Shown: piece after piece, positions 20,498 to 39,174 of the stretch
Layout of the letters: each line of letters begins with the position of its first letter
Numbering within the stretch: the stretch's first letter is position 1
IMG/VR virus record: IMGVR_UViG_2718218098_000005
Span: 1 to 40,480 of that record
DNA from: a virus
Lineage: Duplodnaviria; Heunggongvirae; Uroviricota; Caudoviricetes
DNA: 40,480 nt
Reading direction: 5' to 3' (one strand)
Notes under the pieces: model-generated
Told to the model about the DNA's origin: nothing
The model's database searches: none
The model's input: the letters and a program-made list of their open reading frames with translations, nothing else
Made by a program: the position numbers and the translations under genes

Positions 20498-20848
20498 TCA
20501 ATTGATGCGTTCGCGCGCTGTTTTTGCTTTATGGCAGGGCCAGCACAGACTCTGCAGGTTACTGTCTGCATCCGTGCCACCATGAGCTTTCGGAATGATG
20601 TGGTCCACAGTTCTGGCTTCAACGGCTCTCCCATTGCGCAGGCAGTTCTGACACAGATGATTATCACGCTTCAGTATGCGCGCACGTATGGCATCCCATT
20701 TCGAGCCATAGCCACGCTGGTGGCGACTCAGTCCGCGTTGATGCTGTACCCATCCTTCGCCACGATGTTTATCGCAGTAACCAGAACTGTCGGTGGTTGT
20801 ACCTGCGCATCCACGCTTACGGCAGGCACGTGGGATTCGTGATGGCAT
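20498..20848 (-). CDS. HNH endonuclease (terminase-associated)
   Basis: Cys-rich N-terminus and ..DHIIPKAHGGTDADSNLQSLCWPCH.. HNH motif; located just upstream of terS as in HK97 gp74. Confidence 0.85.
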   Translation of the reverse strand: MPSRIPRACRKRGCAGTTTDSSGYCDKHRGEGWVQHQRGLSRHQRGYGSKWDAIRARILKRDNHLCQNCLRNGRAVEARTVDHIIPKAHGGTDADSNLQSLCWPCHKAKTARERIN

Positions 20849-20855
20849 AAATACC

Positions 20856-21056
20856 TCATACCCTGTTCAGTTTAATGACGGGCTGATTCTCGATATGTTC
20901 TGCTGTCAGTCTGAAAGTCACTGTGACTGTTGGTAGCTCGCCTCCGCGTGACTCTGTTCTTGCGGAAAGCTGCCCTTCCAGTAACTCACCATTAACTGCA
21001 ATCCCATAACCTACGAAATGTTTACCACGATAAAGTTTTGCCAGTTGGTAATTCAT
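20856..21056 (-). CDS. Hypothetical protein (66 aa)
   Basis: ATG at 21056 with AGGAGG 6 nt upstream; no domain recognised. Confidence 0.5.
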   Translation of the reverse strand: MNYQLAKLYRGKHFVGYGIAVNGELLEGQLSARTESRGGELPTVTVTFRLTAEHIENQPVIKLNRV

Positions 21057-21142
21057 TTGCATCCTCCTGCAAAAATCCAGTTCGTGATGTGCATAAAAAA
21101 GCCCCGCGTATGTGGGGCTAATGATTGCAGGGATTTATTGTC

Positions 21143-21445
21143 TCAGTCTAATTTAATAAGTTTTACAGGTTTCTCTCCTGCATCTACGCACCAGTTGTTG
21201 TACTCATGTACAGCCCGCATCAACTCACCATCATAATGACCAACCTTCTCTACAAGATCCGTAAGCGATTGGGGATTAAATTCAACAATTTCAGGTGGGA
21301 CGAGATTCACATTCCCTTTCTGATGAAGGGCATAGACCGCAGTACGCAGATCACCAATAGCTTTCATTCGTTCAGCATAAAGGTCCTTGATCTTTTCATT
21401 GAGAATTTTGCAGCGACCAATTGCTTCATAATTCAGTTCAGACAT
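21143..21445 (-). CDS. Hypothetical protein (100 aa)
   Basis: ATG at 21445 (MSELNYEAIG) with AGGAGG 4 nt upstream. Confidence 0.55.
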   Translation of the reverse strand: MSELNYEAIGRCKILNEKIKDLYAERMKAIGDLRTAVYALHQKGNVNLVPPEIVEFNPQSLTDLVEKVGHYDGELMRAVHEYNNWCVDAGEKPVKLIKLD

Positions 21446-21527
21446 TTTGCCTCCTGTTTTCAATGGAGATATTCAGGCCAATAGCATTATCGCAGCCCCT
21501 CTCACTGAAGGGGTGCTATAATACCTG

Positions 21528-21824
21528 TTACTCAGTAACTACCGCACCTTCCGGTAATTCCATACCAGCAAATACCGGACAACCAGGATGACGATCATCT
21601 TCTGTTGCTTCCAGCATTGACTCACCAAACCACTCCGTCGTGGCGCGACCATCAGCTGCTTTGTAGTGGATCAAGTACTGGTTTTCGCCATCCGCATACT
21701 GCGCACGGGCTTTAACCTCACCCCATTCATCACTGATGCGCATCTCCACCAGTTGAGACAACTCAAACTTAAACGGAGCAGCATCAGCACCAATTACAAT
21801 CGGTTTGTTTTCTGTTTTTTCCAT
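21528..21824 (-). CDS. Hypothetical acidic protein (98 aa)
   Basis: Tandem ATGs at 21827/21824 after AGGAGA; no domain recognised. Confidence 0.55.
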   Translation of the reverse strand: MEKTENKPIVIGADAAPFKFELSQLVEMRISDEWGEVKARAQYADGENQYLIHYKAADGRATTEWFGESMLEATEDDRHPGCPVFAGMELPEGAVVTE

Positions 21825-21998
21825 CATCGTCTCCTGATATTGAAGCCCGTCGCCGCACCGGGCACTGATCAACATTTGAGTATTCGCGGCGACAGAAAGA
21901 ATTTATTTTATTGAGTAGCCACAAACACAGAATTTCATGCTTTCTGGACACTGGCGCATCCTTCATTTTTCAGCAAAATATTCTGCTATTACAGGCGA

Positions 21999-22154
21999 TC
22001 AGTTCTGCATACACTGCCGAACACCGTCGACAATTTCACAGACCTGAGAAGCTGTATCGAAAAGCTGGCGCGCCTTATTCAGGCTGACGCATCCCACCAA
22101 TAAAAAAGGCACCAGTATCGCTACCAGTGCCCATTTCGCTGCCGTTCGCGGCAT
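21999..22154 (-). CDS. Small lipoprotein (lipobox LLVGC), possible lysis accessory
   Basis: Signal peptide MPRTAAKWALVAILVPFLLVG-C; directly after endolysin; alternative start ATG 22181. Confidence 0.5.
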   Translation of the reverse strand: MPRTAAKWALVAILVPFLLVGCVSLNKARQLFDTASQVCEIVDGVRQCMQN

Positions 22155-22195
22155 TCTATGTGTCCAGTGTTTTCGACTCATAACTCGCCCGGCTA

Positions 22196-22573
22196 TCAGC
22201 GTTTCAATTGGAAGTGCGGCCCGTCCTTCAGCGTTTTCCAGTCCCCGCCCCATTCGATGGCGACTCCCAGCTCTGCGGCAGCCTGCTTAAATGCCTGTGC
22301 GATTTTCTCGTACAGAGGCCAGTCCCATGACACCTGGCTGTCAACATAAGCCACAACATCCACAGCATCACCGGTCAGGTGGCGGCTGTTCATGGTCTGG
22401 CTTTTCCCTTCCGCGACCAGCTGTTTCTGGCGTTCTTTCGTGCGCAGCCCTTCCGTAATACCGAAATCAACCTCCGTCAATTCCAGCGCACGGCGAACGA
22501 CAGCAACCAGCTGTGGTTTGACGCCCTCCAGATTTTTTTTACTGCGACGACTGAATCTGAATTTACCCGACAT
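22196..22573 (-). CDS. Endolysin, peptidase M15 family (L-alanyl-D-glutamate peptidase type)
   Basis: Zn-ligand motifs SRHLTGDAVDV and DGPHFQ; RBS GGAGGTGA; follows two membrane proteins. Confidence 0.8.
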   Translation of the reverse strand: MSGKFRFSRRSKKNLEGVKPQLVAVVRRALELTEVDFGITEGLRTKERQKQLVAEGKSQTMNSRHLTGDAVDVVAYVDSQVSWDWPLYEKIAQAFKQAAAELGVAIEWGGDWKTLKDGPHFQLKR

Positions 22574-23990: not shown

Positions 23991-24065
<75 letters not shown>

Positions 24066-24068
24066 ATA

Positions 24069-24144
<76 letters not shown>

Positions 24145-24146
24145 AC

Positions 24147-24223
24147 TGGACCGCCACCGGGGACTCGAACCTCGCACACTCAACTTAAAGTGTTGACGCT
24201 CTTTCCTGATGAACTAGTAGCGG
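24147..24223 (-). tRNA. tRNA-like, probable anticodon TTT (Lys) with C33
   Basis: Acceptor CCGCTAC/GTGGCGG, 5-bp anticodon stem TCAAC/GTTGA, loop ACTTTAA, T-loop TTCGAGT, CCA encoded. Confidence 0.5.
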
Positions 24224-24224
24224 T

Positions 24225-24300
24225 TGGTGGCCCTGGCTGGATTTGAACCAGCGACCTGGCGATTATGAGTCGCTCGCTCTCACCACTGAGCTAAAGGGCC
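24225..24300 (-). tRNA. tRNA-Ile2-like (anticodon CAT; ileX/ileZ type)
   Basis: Strong similarity by recollection to E. coli ileX; anticodon loop CTCATAA; CCA encoded. Confidence 0.8.
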
Positions 24301-26616: not shown

Positions 26617-26841
26617 TTACCTCCAGATGCGTTGCTGGAATGTGCGGGACGGACGCGGTGGCGTTCGGAATAAGGGAGCCTGACGGAGATTATCCAGTGA
26701 CGATATTAGCCATTCAGCTTGTTCTTCAGTGCAGGGGTCATGCTGGAACCAGTAAGATTTAAATGCGTGAGAGCGCCGCCCGTGCCTGCTGGCAAAGACG
26801 GCTGAATTATCAGAATTGTGTAGTCTGGAATTTTGCGCCAT
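26617..26841 (-). CDS. Hypothetical protein (74 aa), translationally coupled to ydfU
   Basis: ATG 26841 with GGAGAAA 7 nt upstream; stop adjacent to ydfU GTG. Confidence 0.5.
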   Translation of the reverse strand: MAQNSRLHNSDNSAVFASRHGRRSHAFKSYWFQHDPCTEEQAEWLISSLDNLRQAPLFRTPPRPSRTFQQRIWR

Positions 26842-27292: not shown

Positions 27293-27320
27293 TCAAAACA
27301 AAAACCCGCCGAAGCGGGTT
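27293..27320 (-). terminator. Terminator downstream of hok
   Basis: Minus strand AACCCGCTTCGGCGGGTTTTTGTTTTGATTTTC. Confidence 0.55.
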
Positions 27321-27388
27321 AAGTGCGGGTGCGTTGAGGATGCCTGACACATCAGAGGTGGCGAGGGATTTCACCCTCGCCTGGTCTC

Positions 27389-27544
27389 TTACTCCTCAGG
27401 TTCGTAAGCTGTGAAGACAGCGACCTCCGTCTGGCCGGTTCGGATTCGTACCTCGCAGAGGTCTTTCCTCGTTACCAGTGCTGTCACTATGACGGTTAAA
27501 CAGATGACGATCAGGGCGATTAACATCGCCTTTTGCTGCTTCAT
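27389..27544 (-). CDS. hokD: Hok/Gef family type I toxin (HokD/RelF-like, 51 aa)
   Basis: MKQQKAMLIALIVICLTVIVTALVTRKDLCEVRIRTGQTEVAVFTAYEPEE matches HokD by recollection; single TM + conserved Cys. Confidence 0.85.
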   Translation of the reverse strand: MKQQKAMLIALIVICLTVIVTALVTRKDLCEVRIRTGQTEVAVFTAYEPEE

Positions 27545-27732
27545 AGCCTGCTTCTCCTTGACCTCTCGGTCCGTAAGAGGCAATCTATATGTGACGAGCA
27601 TATAGGGGCCTCACTTCGATTTATAGTCGGGTGGGGCTTTTATCTATCTGCCTTTGGTGTTCATGCCTGAGGCAGATAGCCTCAAGCACCCGCAGCAATT
27701 CTACTTAACTCTCCTTTTCCCGCAAACCGTTT

Positions 27733-27816
27733 TTATCCCCAGCGGCAAATCGAATACACCACCAGCGCCACCGCCATCGCAATTCCTACCGTTGTGAATG
27801 CTTCAGGCCAGGTCAT
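27733..27816 (-). CDS. Unannotated small membrane peptide (27 aa, single TM)
   Basis: MTWPEAFTTVGIAMAVALVVYSICRWG; AGGAGG 7 nt upstream; ATGA overlap with stop of upstream gene; below ORF-track size cutoff. Confidence 0.45.
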   Translation of the reverse strand: MTWPEAFTTVGIAMAVALVVYSICRWG

Positions 27817-28208
27817 CGATTCACCTCCTGCTCAATATTTTTAAGGTCATTTTCCGCATACAGTATTGCTGTCCTGGTTGCTCGTAACCGGGCTTTGGCG
27901 TTTTTCTCTTCACGTTCAAGTTTTGCCACAGCTTCACGAAGAGCATCTCGCTTTGCATAGAGTGATTTAATCTCTGATACGATGTTTTCACCGTTTCTCG
28001 CACGGTCGAGAACAAGTTCGAACGGATCTAAAGTCAATCCACACCGTTTGCAGGTAATCGTACGATTCACTTCTGAAATTGTTGTACGGATATGCTGACA
28101 GCATTTTTGCTCGACACTTTTTTCGTCGGTTATCACAACGTTGAGAAGTCCTTCCTCCTCTGATTTTGGCTGTACCAGAGTGATAACATTGTCGACTTCA
28201 TTTTTCAT
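27813..28208 (-). CDS. Hypothetical zinc-ribbon + coiled-coil protein (paralog A2)
   Basis: C-x-H ... C-K-R-C-G motif then coiled coil with EKNAKARLR; paralogous to 30638..30994. Confidence 0.6.
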   Translation of the reverse strand: MKNEVDNVITLVQPKSEEEGLLNVVITDEKSVEQKCCQHIRTTISEVNRTITCKRCGLTLDPFELVLDRARNGENIVSEIKSLYAKRDALREAVAKLEREEKNAKARLRATRTAILYAENDLKNIEQEVNR

Positions 28209-28873
28209 CAGTTCACCTCCTGCGGTGGCTCCGGTAGCGGCATCCAGTGAGTTGCCTGCTCAATACCATTACCCGGCTTAATCGTTGCTTCTCCTCGCCG
28301 GAATGTGCTTCCTGTATAGCGTGCGGAGCATATTAGCGGTTCAACCAGAGAGCTATCGAAATTCACCGAAATAAGCACGTTCTGGTTCTTTTCCGGCATT
28401 CGCTCACCACAGCTTATCCAACCAGCCGGAGTTCCCGGAGAGCTGGTTGACGTTTCCGAGATTTCCCGAAAATTGTTGGTTGACGAATTCTTATTTTCCC
28501 GAAAGTTTCCGGCCTGAAGCATGGCGACGCGGCAATCGTTCCATCCTTCAGCATAATCACTATACGCAAGAGGCCAACCTCTTATGTATTCACGCGGCAA
28601 CTTATCAGGCACTACCAGCGCTGGCGGCGCGGAGAATAGTGGTTTAGGTGATATTTCCGCACGTTTTGCGTATGCTTCAACTGTGTCAGGGTTAAACAGG
28701 ATTATGTTTTCACCGCATTCCCACGCCACCGGCTCTGCTTCCAGTGACGCCAGTGCGATACGAAACACATTGGCAAGCAGGCTGTCTGAAGATTGGTTAT
28801 CGTGCGCCGGGTCGCTCAGGAAACCAGTGATGAATGATTTAATTTCCGCGTTTTCTCTGGTAATAGTGGTCAT
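28208..28873 (-). CDS. Hypothetical protein (paralog B2) with C-terminal DUF551-like segment
   Basis: N-terminus MTTITRE and RIALASLEAEPVAW shared with 29081..29593; C-terminal ..ATHWMPLPEPP. Confidence 0.6.
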   Translation of the reverse strand: MTTITRENAEIKSFITGFLSDPAHDNQSSDSLLANVFRIALASLEAEPVAWECGENIILFNPDTVEAYAKRAEISPKPLFSAPPALVVPDKLPREYIRGWPLAYSDYAEGWNDCRVAMLQAGNFRENKNSSTNNFREISETSTSSPGTPAGWISCGERMPEKNQNVLISVNFDSSLVEPLICSARYTGSTFRRGEATIKPGNGIEQATHWMPLPEPPQEVN

Positions 28874-33782: not shown

Positions 33783-34190
33783 ATGAACGAGAAAACTTTA
33801 GGTCAACGAATTAGAGAAAGACGCAAACAGGTTGGTTTAAGTCAAAACGATTTAAGCAAAGCCGCTGGCGTATCTGGCTCATCAATTTCACTATGGGAAA
33901 GCGACCATACAGCCCCGCGCGGGCAAAATTTGCATCGCCTAGCTGAGGTATTGCAATGTTCACCAACTTGGATACTGTTTGGTGACGAGGATAAAACACC
34001 AGATCCACCAGTTGCACTCAACAGCGCCTTAGACTTATCGGAAGATGAGTTGGAGATGTTGCGATTGTATCGCGCACTTCCAAAATCAGAGCAGCAAGCA
34101 CAAATCAGCGAACTCCGTGCCCGCGTTGAGAATTTTAATCGCCTATTCACCGAGCTACTAGAAGCTCGCAAACGTAACAAACATCAGTAA
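33783..34190 (+). CDS. dicA: DicA-like HTH (XRE family) repressor, 135 aa
   Basis: N-terminal XRE HTH (LGQRIRERRKQVGLSQNDLSKAAGVS..); ..LQCSPTWILFGDEDK.. matches DicA by recollection. Confidence 0.85.
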   Translation: MNEKTLGQRIRERRKQVGLSQNDLSKAAGVSGSSISLWESDHTAPRGQNLHRLAEVLQCSPTWILFGDEDKTPDPPVALNSALDLSEDELEMLRLYRALPKSEQQAQISELRARVENFNRLFTELLEARKRNKHQ

Positions 34191-34251
34191 CCCCCTTCAC
34201 AAATTTTAAAGCCTTACATTTCAATGTATTGGCTTTATTTTGCATTAAATA

Positions 34252-34301
34252 TTGAGTTTTCTCATTAAAAACGCTTGACCAACATTCATGAGAAAACTAA
34301 A
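34252..34301 (+). promoter_or_regulatory. Second operator-like site overlapping a candidate rightward promoter downstream of dicA
   Basis: TTGAGTTTTCTCA (34252..34264) and inverted copy GAGAAAACT (34290..34298) flank TTGACC-17 nt-TAAATT. Confidence 0.4.
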
Positions 34302-34383
34302 TTACCACCCATCAAGACACCGCACGGTGTTCTCAGCAAACAGTTCCGCTACCCGGCGTTAAGGGGAAACAGAGGATTTCTCA

Positions 34384-34740
34384 GTGGGCGAACTCAAACA
34401 TCAGAATGGAAGGTATCCTGGGATCAGCAAAGAAACAGCAATGGCGCTTTATATTGATATCAGCGCCATTGCCGGACAGGTAAGAATGATCAGAGCGGTA
34501 ACTAAACGGTATGCGCCTTTACTTCAGAAAGTCTCTGGTGAGTGCGCCGAAGATATCGTCAACGATTTCGTCATCGAATTGCGAGGACTCATCTTCAGTT
34601 ACAAGGTGACCACAGTTTTTGCAGATGGCTCCCGCGAAACTGTCAGAGCCCTGCGGTTTAAAGGATGTGTCAAAGACTTCGCCACCACATTCTGGGCAAG
34701 AAAACTTGATTGTATTCATAACCAATTTCCTCTCGAGTAA
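34384..34740 (+). CDS. Alternative candidate ORF (118 aa, GTG start) on operon strand
   Basis: GAGGA 7 nt upstream of GTG 34384; co-directional with dicA operon; no domain recognised. Confidence 0.3.
   Translation: MGELKHQNGRYPGISKETAMALYIDISAIAGQVRMIRAVTKRYAPLLQKVSGECAEDIVNDFVIELRGLIFSYKVTTVFADGSRETVRALRFKGCVKDFATTFWARKLDCIHNQFPLE
34519..34719 (-). CDS. Candidate C4 zinc-ribbon protein (66 aa); mutually exclusive with plus-strand ORF 34384..34740
   Basis: CPECGG...CKNCG motifs; GAGAGGAAA 6 nt upstream of ATG 34719; antisense to dicA operon direction. Confidence 0.4.
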   Translation of the reverse strand: MNTIKFSCPECGGEVFDTSFKPQGSDSFAGAICKNCGHLVTEDESSQFDDEIVDDIFGALTRDFLK

Positions 34741-34811
34741 CAGACCTCTCAGAGGATACCACCTCGCCTGACGTGGTTAAAAGCAGGCAACGCTAACCAC
34801 GAGGAGCCGAC

Positions 34812-35030
34812 ATGCAGAAACGAGAACCCGTCATCATCGCGCCAGACTATACCGATGATGAACTTTATGAGTGGATGCGCCAGAAAATTAATGCAGCGCA
34901 GGATCTGAAATGGGCCAATGAAGCCAGGGCTAAGCAGGCTGAAAATCTGTCCGCTCTGGAGCAGGATATCACCAATCTGGAAAAAGCAGCGGCATTAAGC
35001 ATTGCCAGAATGATTACATACCCACGTTAA
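34812..35030 (+). CDS. YdfC-like small protein (72 aa)
   Basis: GAGGAG 5 nt upstream of ATG; size and position match ydfC of the dicA-dicF-dicB operon; sequence identity unverified. Confidence 0.6.
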   Translation: MQKREPVIIAPDYTDDELYEWMRQKINAAQDLKWANEARAKQAENLSALEQDITNLEKAAALSIARMITYPR

Positions 35031-35052
35031 TAGCTAACCAACGAGGCTAATA

Positions 35053-35460
35053 ATGGAATTTAAAGATTTACCAAAAGAAATCCAGACAATTGCTGCAACG
35101 GCTCTCGGTGATAGTCTGGTGAAAATTGACCCGGCATACACCAAAAAAGAAACCATCGATAATATGGTTCGTAATGTGCGCAATGCTTTTTCTGGGCTAT
35201 ATGGTCCTGATAATCAAAAGCAGGAAAGCGATGTTAATAAACGGGTAATTTCTGTTTGCGTGAATGGCCATGTTCTTTCATCAATCAAAACAGAAACAGC
35301 GACAGTCTTCGATTGCCTTTGCATTGTACAGAGCCTTGTTGATGCCCTGTTTCGTTCAGTGAATTTAGAAAATGATGCAAATCTGCGAGGGCGCACAATA
35401 GCACATCCATATGCACATACTTTAGGCTCTGTGGATATCAAAGATCCCACAAATCTTTAA
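35053..35460 (+). CDS. Hypothetical protein (135 aa)
   Basis: GAGG 6 nt upstream of ATG; no domain recognised. Confidence 0.6.
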   Translation: MEFKDLPKEIQTIAATALGDSLVKIDPAYTKKETIDNMVRNVRNAFSGLYGPDNQKQESDVNKRVISVCVNGHVLSSIKTETATVFDCLCIVQSLVDALFRSVNLENDANLRGRTIAHPYAHTLGSVDIKDPTNL

Positions 35461-35671
35461 TGAAATAGTTAACGCGAATTGTACTTGCTCTTTCAGTTGC
35501 TTTCAGAATACGCGTTGAAACTGCTGGCGGTAATTTGGTATTCCATTTATTAAAATCATGCCCGGGAAAGTACTCTTCGAAAATACTTTTAACTGCAGAC
35601 TCGCCTATTGAAATGCTGCTTACCATGCGATTTTGATAAAGGCATTTAGCAATAAGAGTTGATTTTAACAT
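35438..35671 (-). CDS. Hypothetical protein (77 aa), convergent with and overlapping 3' end of 35053..35460
   Basis: ATG 35671 with AGGAGGG upstream; 23-nt 3' overlap with plus-strand gene. Confidence 0.4.
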   Translation of the reverse strand: MLKSTLIAKCLYQNRMVSSISIGESAVKSIFEEYFPGHDFNKWNTKLPPAVSTRILKATERASTIRVNYFIKDLWDL

Positions 35672-36005
35672 TCACCCTCCTGAGGGTTGGTAATTAAGGA
35701 GTTCTCCACGGGTGAGGTGGAGTGCGTGCGCCGGACACGGGTGAACATCCGGCACAGACAGTTTACTGAAAGGATATTTCCCTGAAAAGTCAGACCATAA
35801 CGCGAAAGCGCACGGCGAGGTAGCTGGTTCATAGATAGCCTGTCGTTAAATTTTCGTCGACCGTGCGCTTCCGGTTGTGGCAATCCGCGAAATGGCGCGG
35901 CGGTAAGTATGGCGGGGTTATTCCTTCCCCCGTTGAGGACACCGGGTTGTCAGGTTGACCATACGCTTAAGTGACAACCCCGCTGCAACGCCCTCTGTTA
36001 TCAAT

Positions 36006-36062
36006 TTTCTGGTGACGTTTGGCGGTATCAGTTTTACTCCGTGACTGCTCTGCCGCCCTTTT
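36006..36062 (+). ncRNA. dicF: DicF small RNA (ftsZ-targeting sRNA)
   Basis: TTTCTGGTGACGTTTGGCGGTATCAGTTTTACTCCGTGACTGCTCTGCCGCCCTTTTT matches E. coli DicF by recollection incl. terminator hairpin; located just upstream of dicB. Confidence 0.85.
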
Positions 36063-36232
36063 TAAAGTGAATTTTGTGATGCGGTGAATGCGGCTAAGCG
36101 CACGCGGAACAGTTAAAACCAAAAACAGTGTTATGGGTGGATTCTCTGTATCCGGCGTTAATTGTTAACTGGTTAACGTCACCTGGAGGCACCAGGCACT
36201 GCATCACAAAATTCATTGTTGAGGACGCGATA

Positions 36233-36421
36233 ATGGAAACGTTATTACCAAACGTTAATACGTCTGAAGGTTGTTTTGAAATTGGTGTCACTATCAGTAA
36301 CCCTGTATTTACTGAAGATGCCATTAACAAGAGAAAACAAGAACGGGAGCTATTAAATAAAATATGCATTGTTTCAATGCTGGCTCGTTTACGTCTGATG
36401 CCAAAAGGATGTGCACAATGA
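36233..36421 (+). CDS. dicB: DicB cell-division inhibitor (62 aa)
   Basis: METLLPNVNTSEGCFEIGVTISNPVFTEDAINKRKQERELLNKICIVSMLARLRLMPKGCAQ matches DicB by recollection; ORF-track N-terminal extension rejected. Confidence 0.9.
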   Translation: METLLPNVNTSEGCFEIGVTISNPVFTEDAINKRKQERELLNKICIVSMLARLRLMPKGCAQ

Positions 36422-36609
36422 ATTCAGCATTTGCGCTTGTTCTGACAGTTTTTCTTGTTTCCGGAGAACCAGTTGATATTGCAGTCAGTGTTCACAGGAC
36501 AATGCAGGAGTGTATGACTGCAGCAACCGAACAGAAAATTCCCGGTAACTGTTACCCGGTCGATAAAGTTATTAACCAGGATAATATCGAAATCCCGGCA
36601 GGTCTTTAA
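36418..36609 (+). CDS. ydfD: YdfD-like lysis protein (63 aa)
   Basis: MNSAFALVLTVFLVSGEP.. TM N-terminus; ATGA overlap with dicB stop; synteny with Qin. Confidence 0.75.
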   Translation: MNSAFALVLTVFLVSGEPVDIAVSVHRTMQECMTAATEQKIPGNCYPVDKVINQDNIEIPAGL

Positions 36610-36702
36610 AACAGTTCCGTAATAAATATCCGGTTTCATTCTTATATGCCAGCAATGGCAGGGATTTGTTCATCCTTAAATCTGTCATGAGGTTAAAACA
36701 AA

Positions 36703-39174
36703 ATGAGTAAAGTCTTTATTTGCGCCGCTATTCCTGACGAACTGGCAACAAGGGAAGAAGGCGCTGTGGCTGTAGCCACAGCCATTGAAGCTGGCGACGA
36801 ACGCCGTGCTCGAGCAAAATTTCACTGGCAGTTCCTGGAACATTATCCGGCTGCTCAGGACTGCGCTTATAAATTTATTGTCTGCGAGGATAAACCCGGT
36901 ATACCCCGCCCTGCCCTCGATTCCTGGGATACTGAATATATGCAGGAAAACCGCTGGGATGAGGCGTCTGCTTCCTTTGTCCCGGTCGAGACTGAATCCG
37001 ATCCGATGAACGTCACTTTTGACAAGCTGGCCCCTGAAGTACAGAACGCTGTCATGGTTAAGTTCGACACATGTGAAAACATCACTGTTGATATGGTGAT
37101 TAGCGCACAGGAATTGTTGCAGGAAGACATGGCAACATTCGACGGCCATATCGTTGAAGCGTTGATGAAAATGCCAGAAGTTAACGCCATGTATCCGGAG
37201 CTTAAGCTGCATGCCATCGGGTGGGTTAAGCATAAATGTAAGCCTGGTGCCAAATGGCCCGAAATTCAGGCAGAGATGCGCATCTGGAAAAAACGTCGCG
37301 AAGGTGAACGCAAGGAAACCGGAAAATACACGTCTGTTGTTGATCTCGCCCGCGCCAGAGCCAATCAACAGCACACTGAAAATTCAACAGGAAAAATCAC
37401 CCCGGTCATTGCTGCCATTCATCGCGAATACAAGCAGACATGGAAAACACTGGATGACGAACTGGCCTACGCTCTCTGGCCTGGTGATGTGGATGCCGGA
37501 AACATTGACGGCAGCATCCATCGCTGGGCAAAAAATGAAGTTATCGACAACGACCGCGAAGACTGGAAGCGTATCTCGGCATCAATGCGCAAACAGCCTG
37601 ATGCCATTCGCTACGACCGCCAGACTATTTTTGGCCTTGTTCGTGAACGTCCGATCGACATTCACAAAGACCCTGTGGCACTGAACAAATACATTACTGA
37701 ATACCTGACTACAAAGGGCGTGTTTGAAGATGAAGGAAGAAATCAGAGCGCGACTGATACTCTCTCGTCGCCAGTACCAGAAACTGATGCAGTGGAAACG
37801 GCAATTCCGGACAACGAAAAAACCGAATGCAAAGTGGAAGTCGAACCATCTGTAGAGCGTGAGGGGCCGTTCTACTTCCTCTTCACCGACAAGGATGGCG
37901 AAAAATACGGTCGCGCAAACAAACTTTCTGGTCTGGATAAGGCACTGGCTGCCGGGGCTACTGAAATCACGAAAGAAGAATATTTCGCCCGCAAAAACGG
38001 TACATACTCAGGTTCACAACAAAATACTGGTGCATCTGACACGACCGCACAACCAGGGCCGGTAAAAGTTACCGCTGACGAAGTAAACAAAATTATGCAG
38101 GCAGCCAATATCAGCCAGCCTGACGCCGATGAACTGCTTGCAGTATCACGTGGTGAATTTGTTGCAGGGATTAGCGATCCGAATGATCCGAAATGGGTAA
38201 AGGGGATTGAAACCCGCGATTCTGTGAATCAGAACCAGCAAAAAACGGAACAGAACGACCAGAAAGCGGAACAAAACAGCCCAAATGCGTTACAAAACGA
38301 GCCAGAAACGAAACAACCTGAGCCAGTAGCGCAACAGGAACCGGAAAAAGTCTGCACCGCCTGCGGTCAGAGCGGTGGCGGCAACTGCCCTGATTGTGGT
38401 GCGGTGATGGGCGACGCAACATACCAGGAAACATTCGATGAAGAGAATCAGGTTGAAGTTCAGAAAAATGATCCGGAGGAAATGGAAGACGCTGAACATC
38501 CACACAAGGAGAATGCTGGCAGCGCTCAGGACCACGCCAGCGATAATGAAACTGGCGAGACGGCAGATCCCTTAATTGCGGTGAACGGTCATCACGTTAT
38601 CACATCCACCAGCAGAGTGTGGTACCACCTGATGATCGACCTTGAAACCATGGGGAAAAATCCCGATGCTCCGATTATCTCAATAGGTGCAATATTTTTC
38701 GATCCACAAACCGGAGATATGGGGCCGGAATTTAGTAAGACTATCGATCTGGAAACTGCTGGCGGAGTCATTGATCGTGACACCATTAAATGGTGGCTTA
38801 AGCAATCACGCGAGGCGCAATCTGCCATTATGACCGATGAAATCCCGCTAGATGATGCACTGTTACAATTGCGGGAATTTATCGCCGAAAACTCCGGTGA
38901 ATTTTTTGTTCAGGTCTGGGGAAATGGAGCCAACTTCGACAACACGATTTTGCGCCGTTCGTATGAACGGCAGGGGATCCCCTGCCCGTGGCGTTACTAC
39001 AACGATCGCGATGTACGCACAATCGTTGAGCTGGGGAAAGCCATAGACTTCGATGCCAGAACGGCTATTCCATTCGAAGGTGAGCGCCATAATGCACTTG
39101 ATGACGCCCGTTACCAGGCAAAATACGTTTCAGCAATCTGGCAAAAACTGATCCCGAATCCGGTTGATTTTTAA
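36703..39174 (+). CDS. Large exonuclease-family protein (823 aa): long N-terminal region, Q/E-rich linker, C4 zinc ribbon, C-terminal DEDDh 3'-5' exonuclease domain
   Basis: Exo motifs MIDLET (Exo I), NGANFDNTIL (Exo II), HNALDDARY (Exo III); CTACGQSGGGNCPDCG zinc ribbon; low-complexity NQNQQKTEQNDQKAEQN linker. Confidence 0.75.
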   Translation: MSKVFICAAIPDELATREEGAVAVATAIEAGDERRARAKFHWQFLEHYPAAQDCAYKFIVCEDKPGIPRPALDSWDTEYMQENRWDEASASFVPVETESDPMNVTFDKLAPEVQNAVMVKFDTCENITVDMVISAQELLQEDMATFDGHIVEALMKMPEVNAMYPELKLHAIGWVKHKCKPGAKWPEIQAEMRIWKKRREGERKETGKYTSVVDLARARANQQHTENSTGKITPVIAAIHREYKQTWKTLDDELAYALWPGDVDAGNIDGSIHRWAKNEVIDNDREDWKRISASMRKQPDAIRYDRQTIFGLVRERPIDIHKDPVALNKYITEYLTTKGVFEDEGRNQSATDTLSSPVPETDAVETAIPDNEKTECKVEVEPSVEREGPFYFLFTDKDGEKYGRANKLSGLDKALAAGATEITKEEYFARKNGTYSGSQQNTGASDTTAQPGPVKVTADEVNKIMQAANISQPDADELLAVSRGEFVAGISDPNDPKWVKGIETRDSVNQNQQKTEQNDQKAEQNSPNALQNEPETKQPEPVAQQEPEKVCTACGQSGGGNCPDCGAVMGDATYQETFDEENQVEVQKNDPEEMEDAEHPHKENAGSAQDHASDNETGETADPLIAVNGHHVITSTSRVWYHLMIDLETMGKNPDAPIISIGAIFFDPQTGDMGPEFSKTIDLETAGGVIDRDTIKWWLKQSREAQSAIMTDEIPLDDALLQLREFIAENSGEFFVQVWGNGANFDNTILRRSYERQGIPCPWRYYNDRDVRTIVELGKAIDFDARTAIPFEGERHNALDDARYQAKYVSAIWQKLIPNPVDF

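Follow-up and report, generated by a model that had tools for sequence, protein, structure and literature searches.

YohP (27 aa), KdpF and PmrR (29 aa each), MgtS (31 aa), CydX (37 aa), and AcrZ (49 aa) are small single-pass membrane proteins, and most of them act by attaching to a larger protein of the membrane. Genome annotation has a recognized blind spot for small membrane proteins. Type I toxins, including Hok/Gef, DinQ, TisB, ShoB, Ibs, Ldr, and ZorO, are short hydrophobic peptides with one predicted membrane helix. They are amphipathic, and their defining organization is an antisense RNA, a promoter of their own, and an occluded ribosome site. Phages carry accessory genes whose products act at the inner membrane, such as T4 Imm, HK97 gp15, and P22 SieA, and encode holins, antiholins, and lysis peptides in a late lysis cassette. 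The exo-xis/ea and nin regions of lambdoid phages contain small accessory genes, among them ea22, ea8.5, orf60a, orf61, and orf63 (PMC4195576, PMC7093339). DicB acts on ManYZ (PMC6832061), and YohP has served as a 27-aa model protein (PMC7549839).

Here we describe a 27-codon open reading frame (sORF) of a lambdoid prophage. Its product has no more than 50 aa and a single predicted helix and is under purifying selection, in agreement with the AcrZ/MgrB/MgtS/CydX type of small protein, a class defined by function and not by homology. It resembles YohP, KdpF, CydX, MgtS, AcrZ, and PmrR in its size class, its one predicted transmembrane helix, its almost complete lack of a soluble part, and in having been missed by gene finders. 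However, it has no sequence relationship to any of them, is phage-borne, lies in early operons coupled to variable upstream genes, and is not in a kdp, cyd, or acr context. Unlike the type I toxins, the sORF comes without an antisense RNA, a promoter of its own, an occluded ribosome site, or a Pfam Hok/Gef match; its core is nearly free of charge, and in most contexts it occurs without hok. Holins, antiholins, and lysis peptides belong to the late lysis cassette, whereas the sORF lies in an early operon upstream of Q. With the exo-xis, ea, and nin genes it shares neighborhoods, tight packing, overlapping stop and start codons, and modular exchange, but the genes described there encode soluble proteins of at least 60 aa, and none of them is the sORF with its 27-aa predicted membrane peptide. 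T4 Imm, HK97 gp15, and P22 SieA exemplify the role that we consider likeliest for the sORF, although each exceeds 60 aa and none is related to it in sequence. DicB is a functional parallel, but it is soluble. Judged from its sequence, the sORF would represent a new phage-borne family of a known kind, the small single-pass membrane protein.

Results

The DNA that we analyzed, the window, is a stretch of 40,480 nucleotides that represents a lambdoid prophage integrated beside yccA. The original prediction had placed an unannotated 27-aa membrane peptide at 27733-27816, translationally coupled to the gene upstream, and had omitted the strand. The translation matches exactly on the minus strand, where the ATG is at 27816-27814 and the TAA stop at 27735-27733 (84 nt), and the product is MTWPEAFTTVGIAMAVALVVYSICRWG (translation of 27816..27733, minus strand). 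The features around it are as follows.

27733..27816, minus strand: sORF, 27 codons plus TAA, from the sequence and the ORF list; predicted single-pass membrane microprotein
27824..27829, minus strand: Shine-Dalgarno (SD) sequence AGGAGG, 7 nt before the sORF ATG
27813..28208, minus strand: 131-aa gene, phrog_1621, a relative of 933W L0139, with no Pfam domain
28208..28873, minus strand: DUF551 gene (Pfam DUF551, E=1e-21)
27389-27691, minus strand: complete hok/sok-type cassette, directly 3' of the sORF

The strong AGGAGG is present as predicted, and at 27829-27824 it doubles as codons for the final residues (QEV) of the upstream 131-aa protein. The proposed ATGA overlap with the stop of the upstream gene was likewise borne out: the TGA of the 131-aa gene (27815-27813) overlaps the sORF ATG. 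Another TGA lies in the sORF frame 18 nt upstream of the ATG, so there is no longer N-terminus in the window and the length is fixed at 27 codons. Of 171 homologous copies, 158 have a start codon that overlaps the stop of the preceding gene (ATGA in 141, TGATG or TAATG in 17). An SD core of at least 5 nt at a spacing of 6 to 11 nt precedes the start in 34 of 38 distinct upstream contexts, compared to 2.5% of control ATGs from the same loci. The RNA of this region is less folded than its shuffles, with a folding z-score of +0.92 for 27700-27860 and a mean of +0.88 over 10 variants, and the ribosome site of the sORF is exposed and strong. A low-sensitivity scan found no promoter-like or terminator-like site between the sORF and the upstream genes. 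By itself, a 27-codon ORF is unremarkable, given that 89 ORFs of at least 20 aa lie within 4.5 kb; it is the conservation evidence that raises the sORF far above a chance ORF.

We collected copies with a degenerate pattern that fixed M1, W3, P4, E/D5, A6, G11, the middle base of codon 25, and W26 and left the stop free. All 170 copies retrieved in this way have exactly 27 codons, and they comprise 36 distinct peptides and 59 DNA variants. By parsimony on a neighbor-joining tree of the 59 DNA variants, changes at codon positions 1, 2, and 3 number 43, 42, and 113 (198 in total), and 102 synonymous changes compare with 96 nonsynonymous ones, where the expected synonymous share is 0.24. This tree-based count gives an omega of ~0.30 (p=7e-17) for a set that was gathered by pattern or protein similarity, which biases it toward conserved copies, and that is dominated by closely related enterobacterial phages, so that the statistics count few deep events. 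Because the pattern fixes some first and second positions, we repeated the count on the 19 codons that it leaves unconstrained; omega was ~0.42 (p=2e-8). Within codons 7 to 24, only 5 of 72 replacements are polar, charged, or stop, versus 27% expected (p=1e-5), and the rest are almost all hydrophobic or small. The small gene thus behaves as protein-coding, as had been supposed. Indels point the same way in part: of three indel variants inspected, two stay in frame, one with 6 nt more (29 aa) and one with 6 nt less (25 aa). POCJ13 has TGG changed to TAG at codon 3, one E. coli copy carries a 1-nt deletion, and another is truncated at the 5' end, so some copies decay, as expected in prophages.

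Other readings of the same DNA were considered. In the other frames, the tree-based count gives an omega of 1.4 to 1.6. The wobble-aligned antisense frame mimics the sense omega by construction, and the sole ground for excluding an antisense gene there is the lack of a usable start: in the window, that frame offers no ATG and no GTG ORF of more than 16 codons. A plus-strand ORF of 47 aa at 27654..27797 was rejected; the omega of its frame is ~1.6-2.3, and stops interrupt it in 42 of the 59 variants. We also rejected the reading of the region as an RNA element, given its positive folding z-scores and the lack of a conserved RNA structure in the alignment (consensus energy, -2.5 kcal/mol; the covariation term is positive, which is unfavorable). 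Taken together, 27816..27733 on the minus strand is very probably a genuine protein-coding microgene, and we hold with high confidence that the sORF is coding.

The peptide has an N-terminal cap, MxWPEA, a hydrophobic core with alternating small residues (G11, A13, A15, and A17), and a C-terminal motif, YSICRWG. One acidic residue at the N terminus and one basic residue at the C terminus are the only charges in the whole peptide, and the core is almost without charged residues in any variant. The mean hydropathy of residues 6 to 24 is 2.1. A peptide this hydrophobic is long enough for one membrane crossing, which agrees with the membrane peptide of the original prediction, and we think it likely that it spans the membrane, being almost entirely one predicted transmembrane helix. 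M1, W3, P4, A6, G11, and W26 show no variation among the pattern-retrieved copies, but the pattern had fixed them. Among the tblastn copies that were read out, which were found independently of the pattern, no intact copy has lost W3, P4, A6, or G11, and W26 is present wherever the copy is both intact and of full length. A15 (34/36), Y21 (33/36), I23 (33/36), C24 (34/36), and R25 (34/36) are near-invariant among the 36 peptides, and of these, only R25 had any base fixed by the pattern (one). W3 and W26 are 23 residues apart, ~34 Å as a helix, a distance that would suit two membrane interfaces. By the positive-inside rule, a topology with the N terminus out and the C terminus in is weakly favored. 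The small residues form two small-xxx-small pairs, G11/A15 and A13/A17. We found no single conserved helix face (variability moment, 0.108, exceeded by 53% of shuffles), and so the packing interface proposed below rests only on the spacing of these two pairs. A lipoprotein signal peptide was dismissed on inspection since YSIC does not match a lipobox.

The sORF lies in the rightward early operon, which runs from the replication genes through a nin-like region to Q. The order is cro, replication genes, DUF977, ead/Ea22-like, DUF551, the 131-aa gene, sORF, hokD, DUF968, rusA, and Q; the holins and endolysin of the prophage are annotated separately, downstream of Q and tRNA genes. A 1-kb query around the sORF matched a region of E. 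coli M19 at 100% identity. In PhiR12_1, PhiR5_1, PhiR49_2, and VT1-Sakai, the sORF sits unannotated between Ea22/EaA-type genes and xis-int. The 131-aa gene as a coupling partner is specific to the window, its family preceding the sORF in only 8 of 171 copies. Its product has two Cys pairs (CCQH...CKRC) and a predicted coiled coil as its C-terminal half; weak matches to Cas12f TNB and LmuB look like generic zinc-ribbon and coiled-coil similarity.

On the other side of the sORF, the Rfam sok/hok model matches 27542-27691 on the minus strand with 107 bits, and this boundary places the start of the hok mRNA 42 nt past the sORF stop. By inspection, the interval from the sORF stop to the start of the hok mRNA contains a promoter-like TTTGCG-17 nt-TAGAAT. 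A mok-like ORF begins at 27601, and hokD is a separate ORF inside 27389-27601 that PGAP annotates on the identical M19 DNA. A hok/sok cassette is next to the sORF also in 933W and is found downstream in 40 of 166 homologous contexts. Given the Rfam boundaries and the variable downstream contexts, we rejected the idea that the sORF is part of hok/sok; the cassette in the window, whose Rfam model starts at 27691, is an independent unit. Just after hok, a stem-loop and terminator give a weak isrK-like Rfam match (27299-27380, minus strand; 25 bits against a gathering score of 50), which is probably the 3' end of the hok mRNA and not an IsrK homologue. Between hok and the DUF968 gene, a 74-aa ORF at 26617-26841 (minus strand) is flagged as frameshifted by PGAP on the identical M19 DNA.

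The neighbors of the sORF change from copy to copy. At least six mutually unrelated families, defined by their C termini, occur directly upstream, and only DUF551 has a Pfam domain. The DUF551 gene is the commonest direct upstream neighbor elsewhere, its C terminus preceding 103 of 171 copies. The upstream families are as follows.

DUF551: 103 copies
114-aa family: 37 copies
131-aa/933W L0139 family: 8 copies
110-134-aa family: 5 copies
151-209-aa family: 2 copies
EaA-type (177 aa): 1 copy

Downstream, we counted 15 different contexts, which include the following.

Gene start 2 nt past the sORF stop: 48 copies, P1-like
Gene start 4 nt past the sORF stop: 36 copies, a DUF4222 gene ahead of xis-int
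hok/sok: 40 copies
Others: several terminator-like hairpins; an opposite-strand toxin-antitoxin pair

The next gene thus starts 2 to 4 nt past the stop in 84 of 171 copies, and terminator hairpins follow only some copies. Since the sORF is often in the middle of an operon, the idea of an operon-end peptide does not generalize to the family. The variety of upstream genes and of downstream contexts shows that the sORF is a portable gene module, separate from hok/sok.

The edges of this module can be located. When other genomes were compared by BLAST, similarity set in at query position 70 or 83, leaving 15 or 2 nt ahead of the ATG, and in many of the matches it stopped at the sORF stop codon (position 168-169). 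The 5' boundary coincides with a 19-nt linker, GCAGGAGGTGAAnnGATGA, that occurs twice in the window (chance expectation, 0.01) and flanks the 131-aa gene exactly.

27813..27831, minus strand: junction linker GCAGGAGGTGAATCGATGA, containing the SD, the upstream stop, and the sORF start; 5' boundary of the mobile module
28205..28223, minus strand: second copy of the linker, GCAGGAGGTGAACTGATGA, at the boundary of the DUF551 gene and the 131-aa gene

The same linker, in another frame, precedes 933W L0139 and one further gene module. Many other genomes have the sORF immediately after the DUF551 gene, and the 131-aa gene therefore looks as if it had been inserted between two linker copies. The DUF551 gene would be the source of the linker sequence, and we infer that its 3' end, with its SD, may be a junction at which downstream modules are exchanged. 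Such a junction would agree with the notion of a "boundary sequence" in lambdoid mosaics, reportedly put forward by Juhala et al. in 2000 and Clark et al. in 2001.

Conservation in related prophages had been named by the original prediction as a check on the peptide, and it proved extensive. Among 5426 complete E. coli genomes, 1634 (~30%) have the 84-nt sequence, often in several copies and in up to 7 per genome. It matches 3110 places in all, nearly all at full length, and 163 of these places are on plasmids. A tblastn search found the peptide in 94 phage records, with 59 to 100% identity over the full length, from lambdoid/Stx, P1-like, and Vequintavirinae phages. The carriers include 933W, VT2-Sakai, VT1-Sakai, BP-4795, ArgO145, P1-like Punavirus phages, and vB_EcoM_TH18 (Vequintavirinae). 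Another 181 tblastn records are plasmids (Escherichia, 155; Salmonella, 25; Klebsiella, 1), mostly of ~95 kb, non-mobilizable, and of P1-like size; one copy that we inspected is in a Punavirus. Judged from phage and plasmid records only, the family is confined to Escherichia, Shigella, and Salmonella, plus the one Klebsiella plasmid record. A scan of genome contigs with an 81-nt degenerate pattern returned ~39 chance matches in GC-rich genomes, one match in Escherichia sp., and one on a 369-bp "Acinetobacter" contig, which may be contamination. CPS-53 (yfdS, yfdT, ypdJ), the one cryptic prophage of K-12 covered, has no sORF copy. A 29-aa ORF, MTWPEAFCSVGWAAALASTAWALAWWAKR, on IMG/VR contig 3300019884_000121 (9778-9867, plus strand; 65% G+C) has the N-terminal MTWPEAF in common with the sORF, and its start and its stop each lie in an ATGA overlap. 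Either convergence or distant kinship, in a high-GC phage, may account for the resemblance.

The description of the peptide as unannotated holds for RefSeq/PGAP, which leaves the sORF out on the identical E. coli M19 DNA, and for all phage records inspected; it fails for a few GenBank genomes, which list the exact 27-aa sequence, or a close variant of it, as "bacteriophage protein" or "hypothetical protein" (e.g., AOM45384.1). Extended calls of 40 to 45 aa exist as well (e.g., WP_250221393.1). When a 45-aa extended homologue was compared with 5.8 billion proteins, only 3 entries matched. Prodigal has a minimum gene length of 90 nt. At 84 nt, the sORF is below this common gene-finder minimum, which fits its absence from RefSeq and near absence from the 5.8-billion-protein collection.

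Searches with the peptide gave only sub-threshold composition matches in Pfam and NCBIfam, among them a weak one to the glycine-zipper family DUF883_C (E=0.042, below the cutoff). There was no Pfam Hok/Gef match at E up to 1, no match in PADLOC, and none in the PDB at E up to 10; in PHROGs, the best E values were 0.01 to 0.02 and differed between variants. The KdpF model TIGR02115 scored 14.7 bits against a cutoff of 26.85, over 12 residues only, and the neighbors of the sORF are phage genes. A literature search by peptide sequence found no paper, and the peptide was not found in the supplements of PMC5597208, PMC5331693, and PMC10903887, two of them ribosome-profiling papers on EHEC.

Existing records of the region contain several oddities. 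The 27-aa peptides share "90% identity" clusters with DUF551 proteins that do not contain the peptide, and so the DUF551 link looks like an artifact of clustering or annotation. NCBI also holds partial out-of-frame peptides, such as GGESMTWPEAF..., under the name "DUF551 domain-containing protein, partial." In AP004402.1 (Stx2 converting phage I), a 249-aa antisense "ORF-38" (201-950 of the locus, minus strand) runs across an L0139-like gene and the sORF region. This ORF-38 is in all probability spurious, and the sORF is unannotated in that record.

Discussion

We consider it likely that one explanation covers these observations as a whole: the sORF is a coding microgene for a membrane peptide, carried as a mobile module and acting at the membrane. 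Translation would begin from its own strong SD and by termination-reinitiation coupling with whichever gene is upstream. The sORF would move between phages as a module of ~100 bp whose left edge, the linker, would be at once an SD, the last codons of the upstream gene, and a recombination junction. The peptide would insert as one transmembrane helix, and with essentially no soluble part, it would have to act inside the inner membrane. There it might, speculatively, pack by its small-xxx-small motifs on helices of host membrane proteins, or on itself, during early lytic growth, and the resulting role would be accessory host takeover or exclusion. Modulation of a partner in this way is a speculative possibility, to which we give rather less than even weight. 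The presence of the sORF in temperate lambdoid, P1-like, and virulent Vequintavirinae phages suggests that its role is in lytic development or host takeover rather than in lysogeny. The original prediction offered two guesses, a toxin or a regulator, and a putative regulator of a membrane protein is the more likely of them. A bolder version, in which the sORF product is a very widespread effector of Stx phages, P1-like phage-plasmids, and some virulent phages, seems to us unlikely; the effector would bind a conserved machine of the host inner membrane at an early lytic stage and cause superinfection exclusion or host takeover. If it were true, the host target might be, for example, a DNA-entry route, a transporter, or a protease, and the sORF, at ~100 bp, would count among the smallest gene modules that move independently within phage mosaics.

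The toxin guess deserves to be weighed in its strongest form, a membrane-damaging, viroporin-like peptide whose oligomers, held together by the two small-xxx-small motifs, depolarize the inner membrane during lytic growth, much as type I toxins or small lysis or timing peptides would. DinQ, TisB, and ShoB are similar to the sORF peptide in size and hydrophobicity. Its G11/A15 and A13/A17 motifs are on different helix faces and could support oligomers, the sub-threshold match to DUF883_C is of the glycine-zipper kind, and a hok/sok cassette adjoins the sORF in the window and in 933W. However, the sORF has neither an antisense RNA nor a dedicated promoter, its sole Rfam match being the hok/sok cassette 42 nt past the stop. 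Its ribosome site is exposed and strong in an RNA less folded than shuffles (z of about +0.9), the opposite of an occluded site, and in no variant does the core have more than a trace of charged or amphipathic character. The hok cassette is adjacent in only 40 of 166 contexts, and up to 7 copies are tolerated per genome. The toxin option thus gained no positive support, and we regard it as quite improbable.

Two further alternatives were weighed. In the first, the peptide itself would be beside the point, and the short ORF would be kept as a translational relay that hands ribosomes from the upstream gene on to the next, as an mRNA unfolder, or as a mere part of a conserved recombination linker; the next gene does begin 2 to 4 nt past the stop in about half of the copies (84 of 171), and the 5' edge is a linker common to another gene junction in the window. 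Neither a relay nor a linker should put any constraint on the amino acid sequence, but omega is 0.3 to 0.4, replacements are almost exclusively hydrophobic, and the 27-codon length and terminal motifs are kept. Moreover, the ORF is equally conserved ahead of hok/sok, terminator hairpins, or opposite-strand genes, and the alignment has no conserved RNA structure (-2.5 kcal/mol, positive covariation term). We therefore hold this reading to be very improbable. Fainter still is the chance that the sORF encodes a C-terminal membrane anchor fused by programmed frameshifting to the upstream DUF551 or 131-aa protein. In DUF551 contexts the sORF frame does stay open for 15 to 18 codons upstream, and the GGESMTWPEAF... 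partial peptides carry a DUF551 name, but in the window an in-frame TGA stands 18 nt before the ATG. Inspection of the final codons of upstream genes showed no slippery heptamer, the peptide is absent from the full-length DUF551 proteins in its clusters, and the upstream partner varies among at least six unrelated families.

The preferred reading, a mobile microgene for a membrane peptide, has some practical consequences. Carriers include the medically important Stx phages 933W and VT2-Sakai, and the sORF, being conserved, cleanly mutable, and marked by clear motifs, is a tractable candidate in the search for a new interaction between phage and host at the inner membrane. The sORF would also show that very short genes are shuffled between phages at linkers that double as ribosome sites. 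Even if its role is only marginal or accessory, it provides a useful annotation correction.

Other features of the window

The immunity and early-left region of the prophage (~33800-37400; M19 locus 19458-22284) is Qin-like, with homologues of ydfC, dicB, and ydfD, and a YdaT-family gene adjoins cro there. Downstream of Q, ARAGORN finds four adjacent tRNA genes at 23991-24300 on the minus strand: Gly-tcc, Thr-tgt, Lys-ttt, and Met/Ile-cat. For the corresponding prophage region of M19, the PGAP annotation has just tRNA-Gly and tRNA-Ile, separated by a gap of 159 nt.
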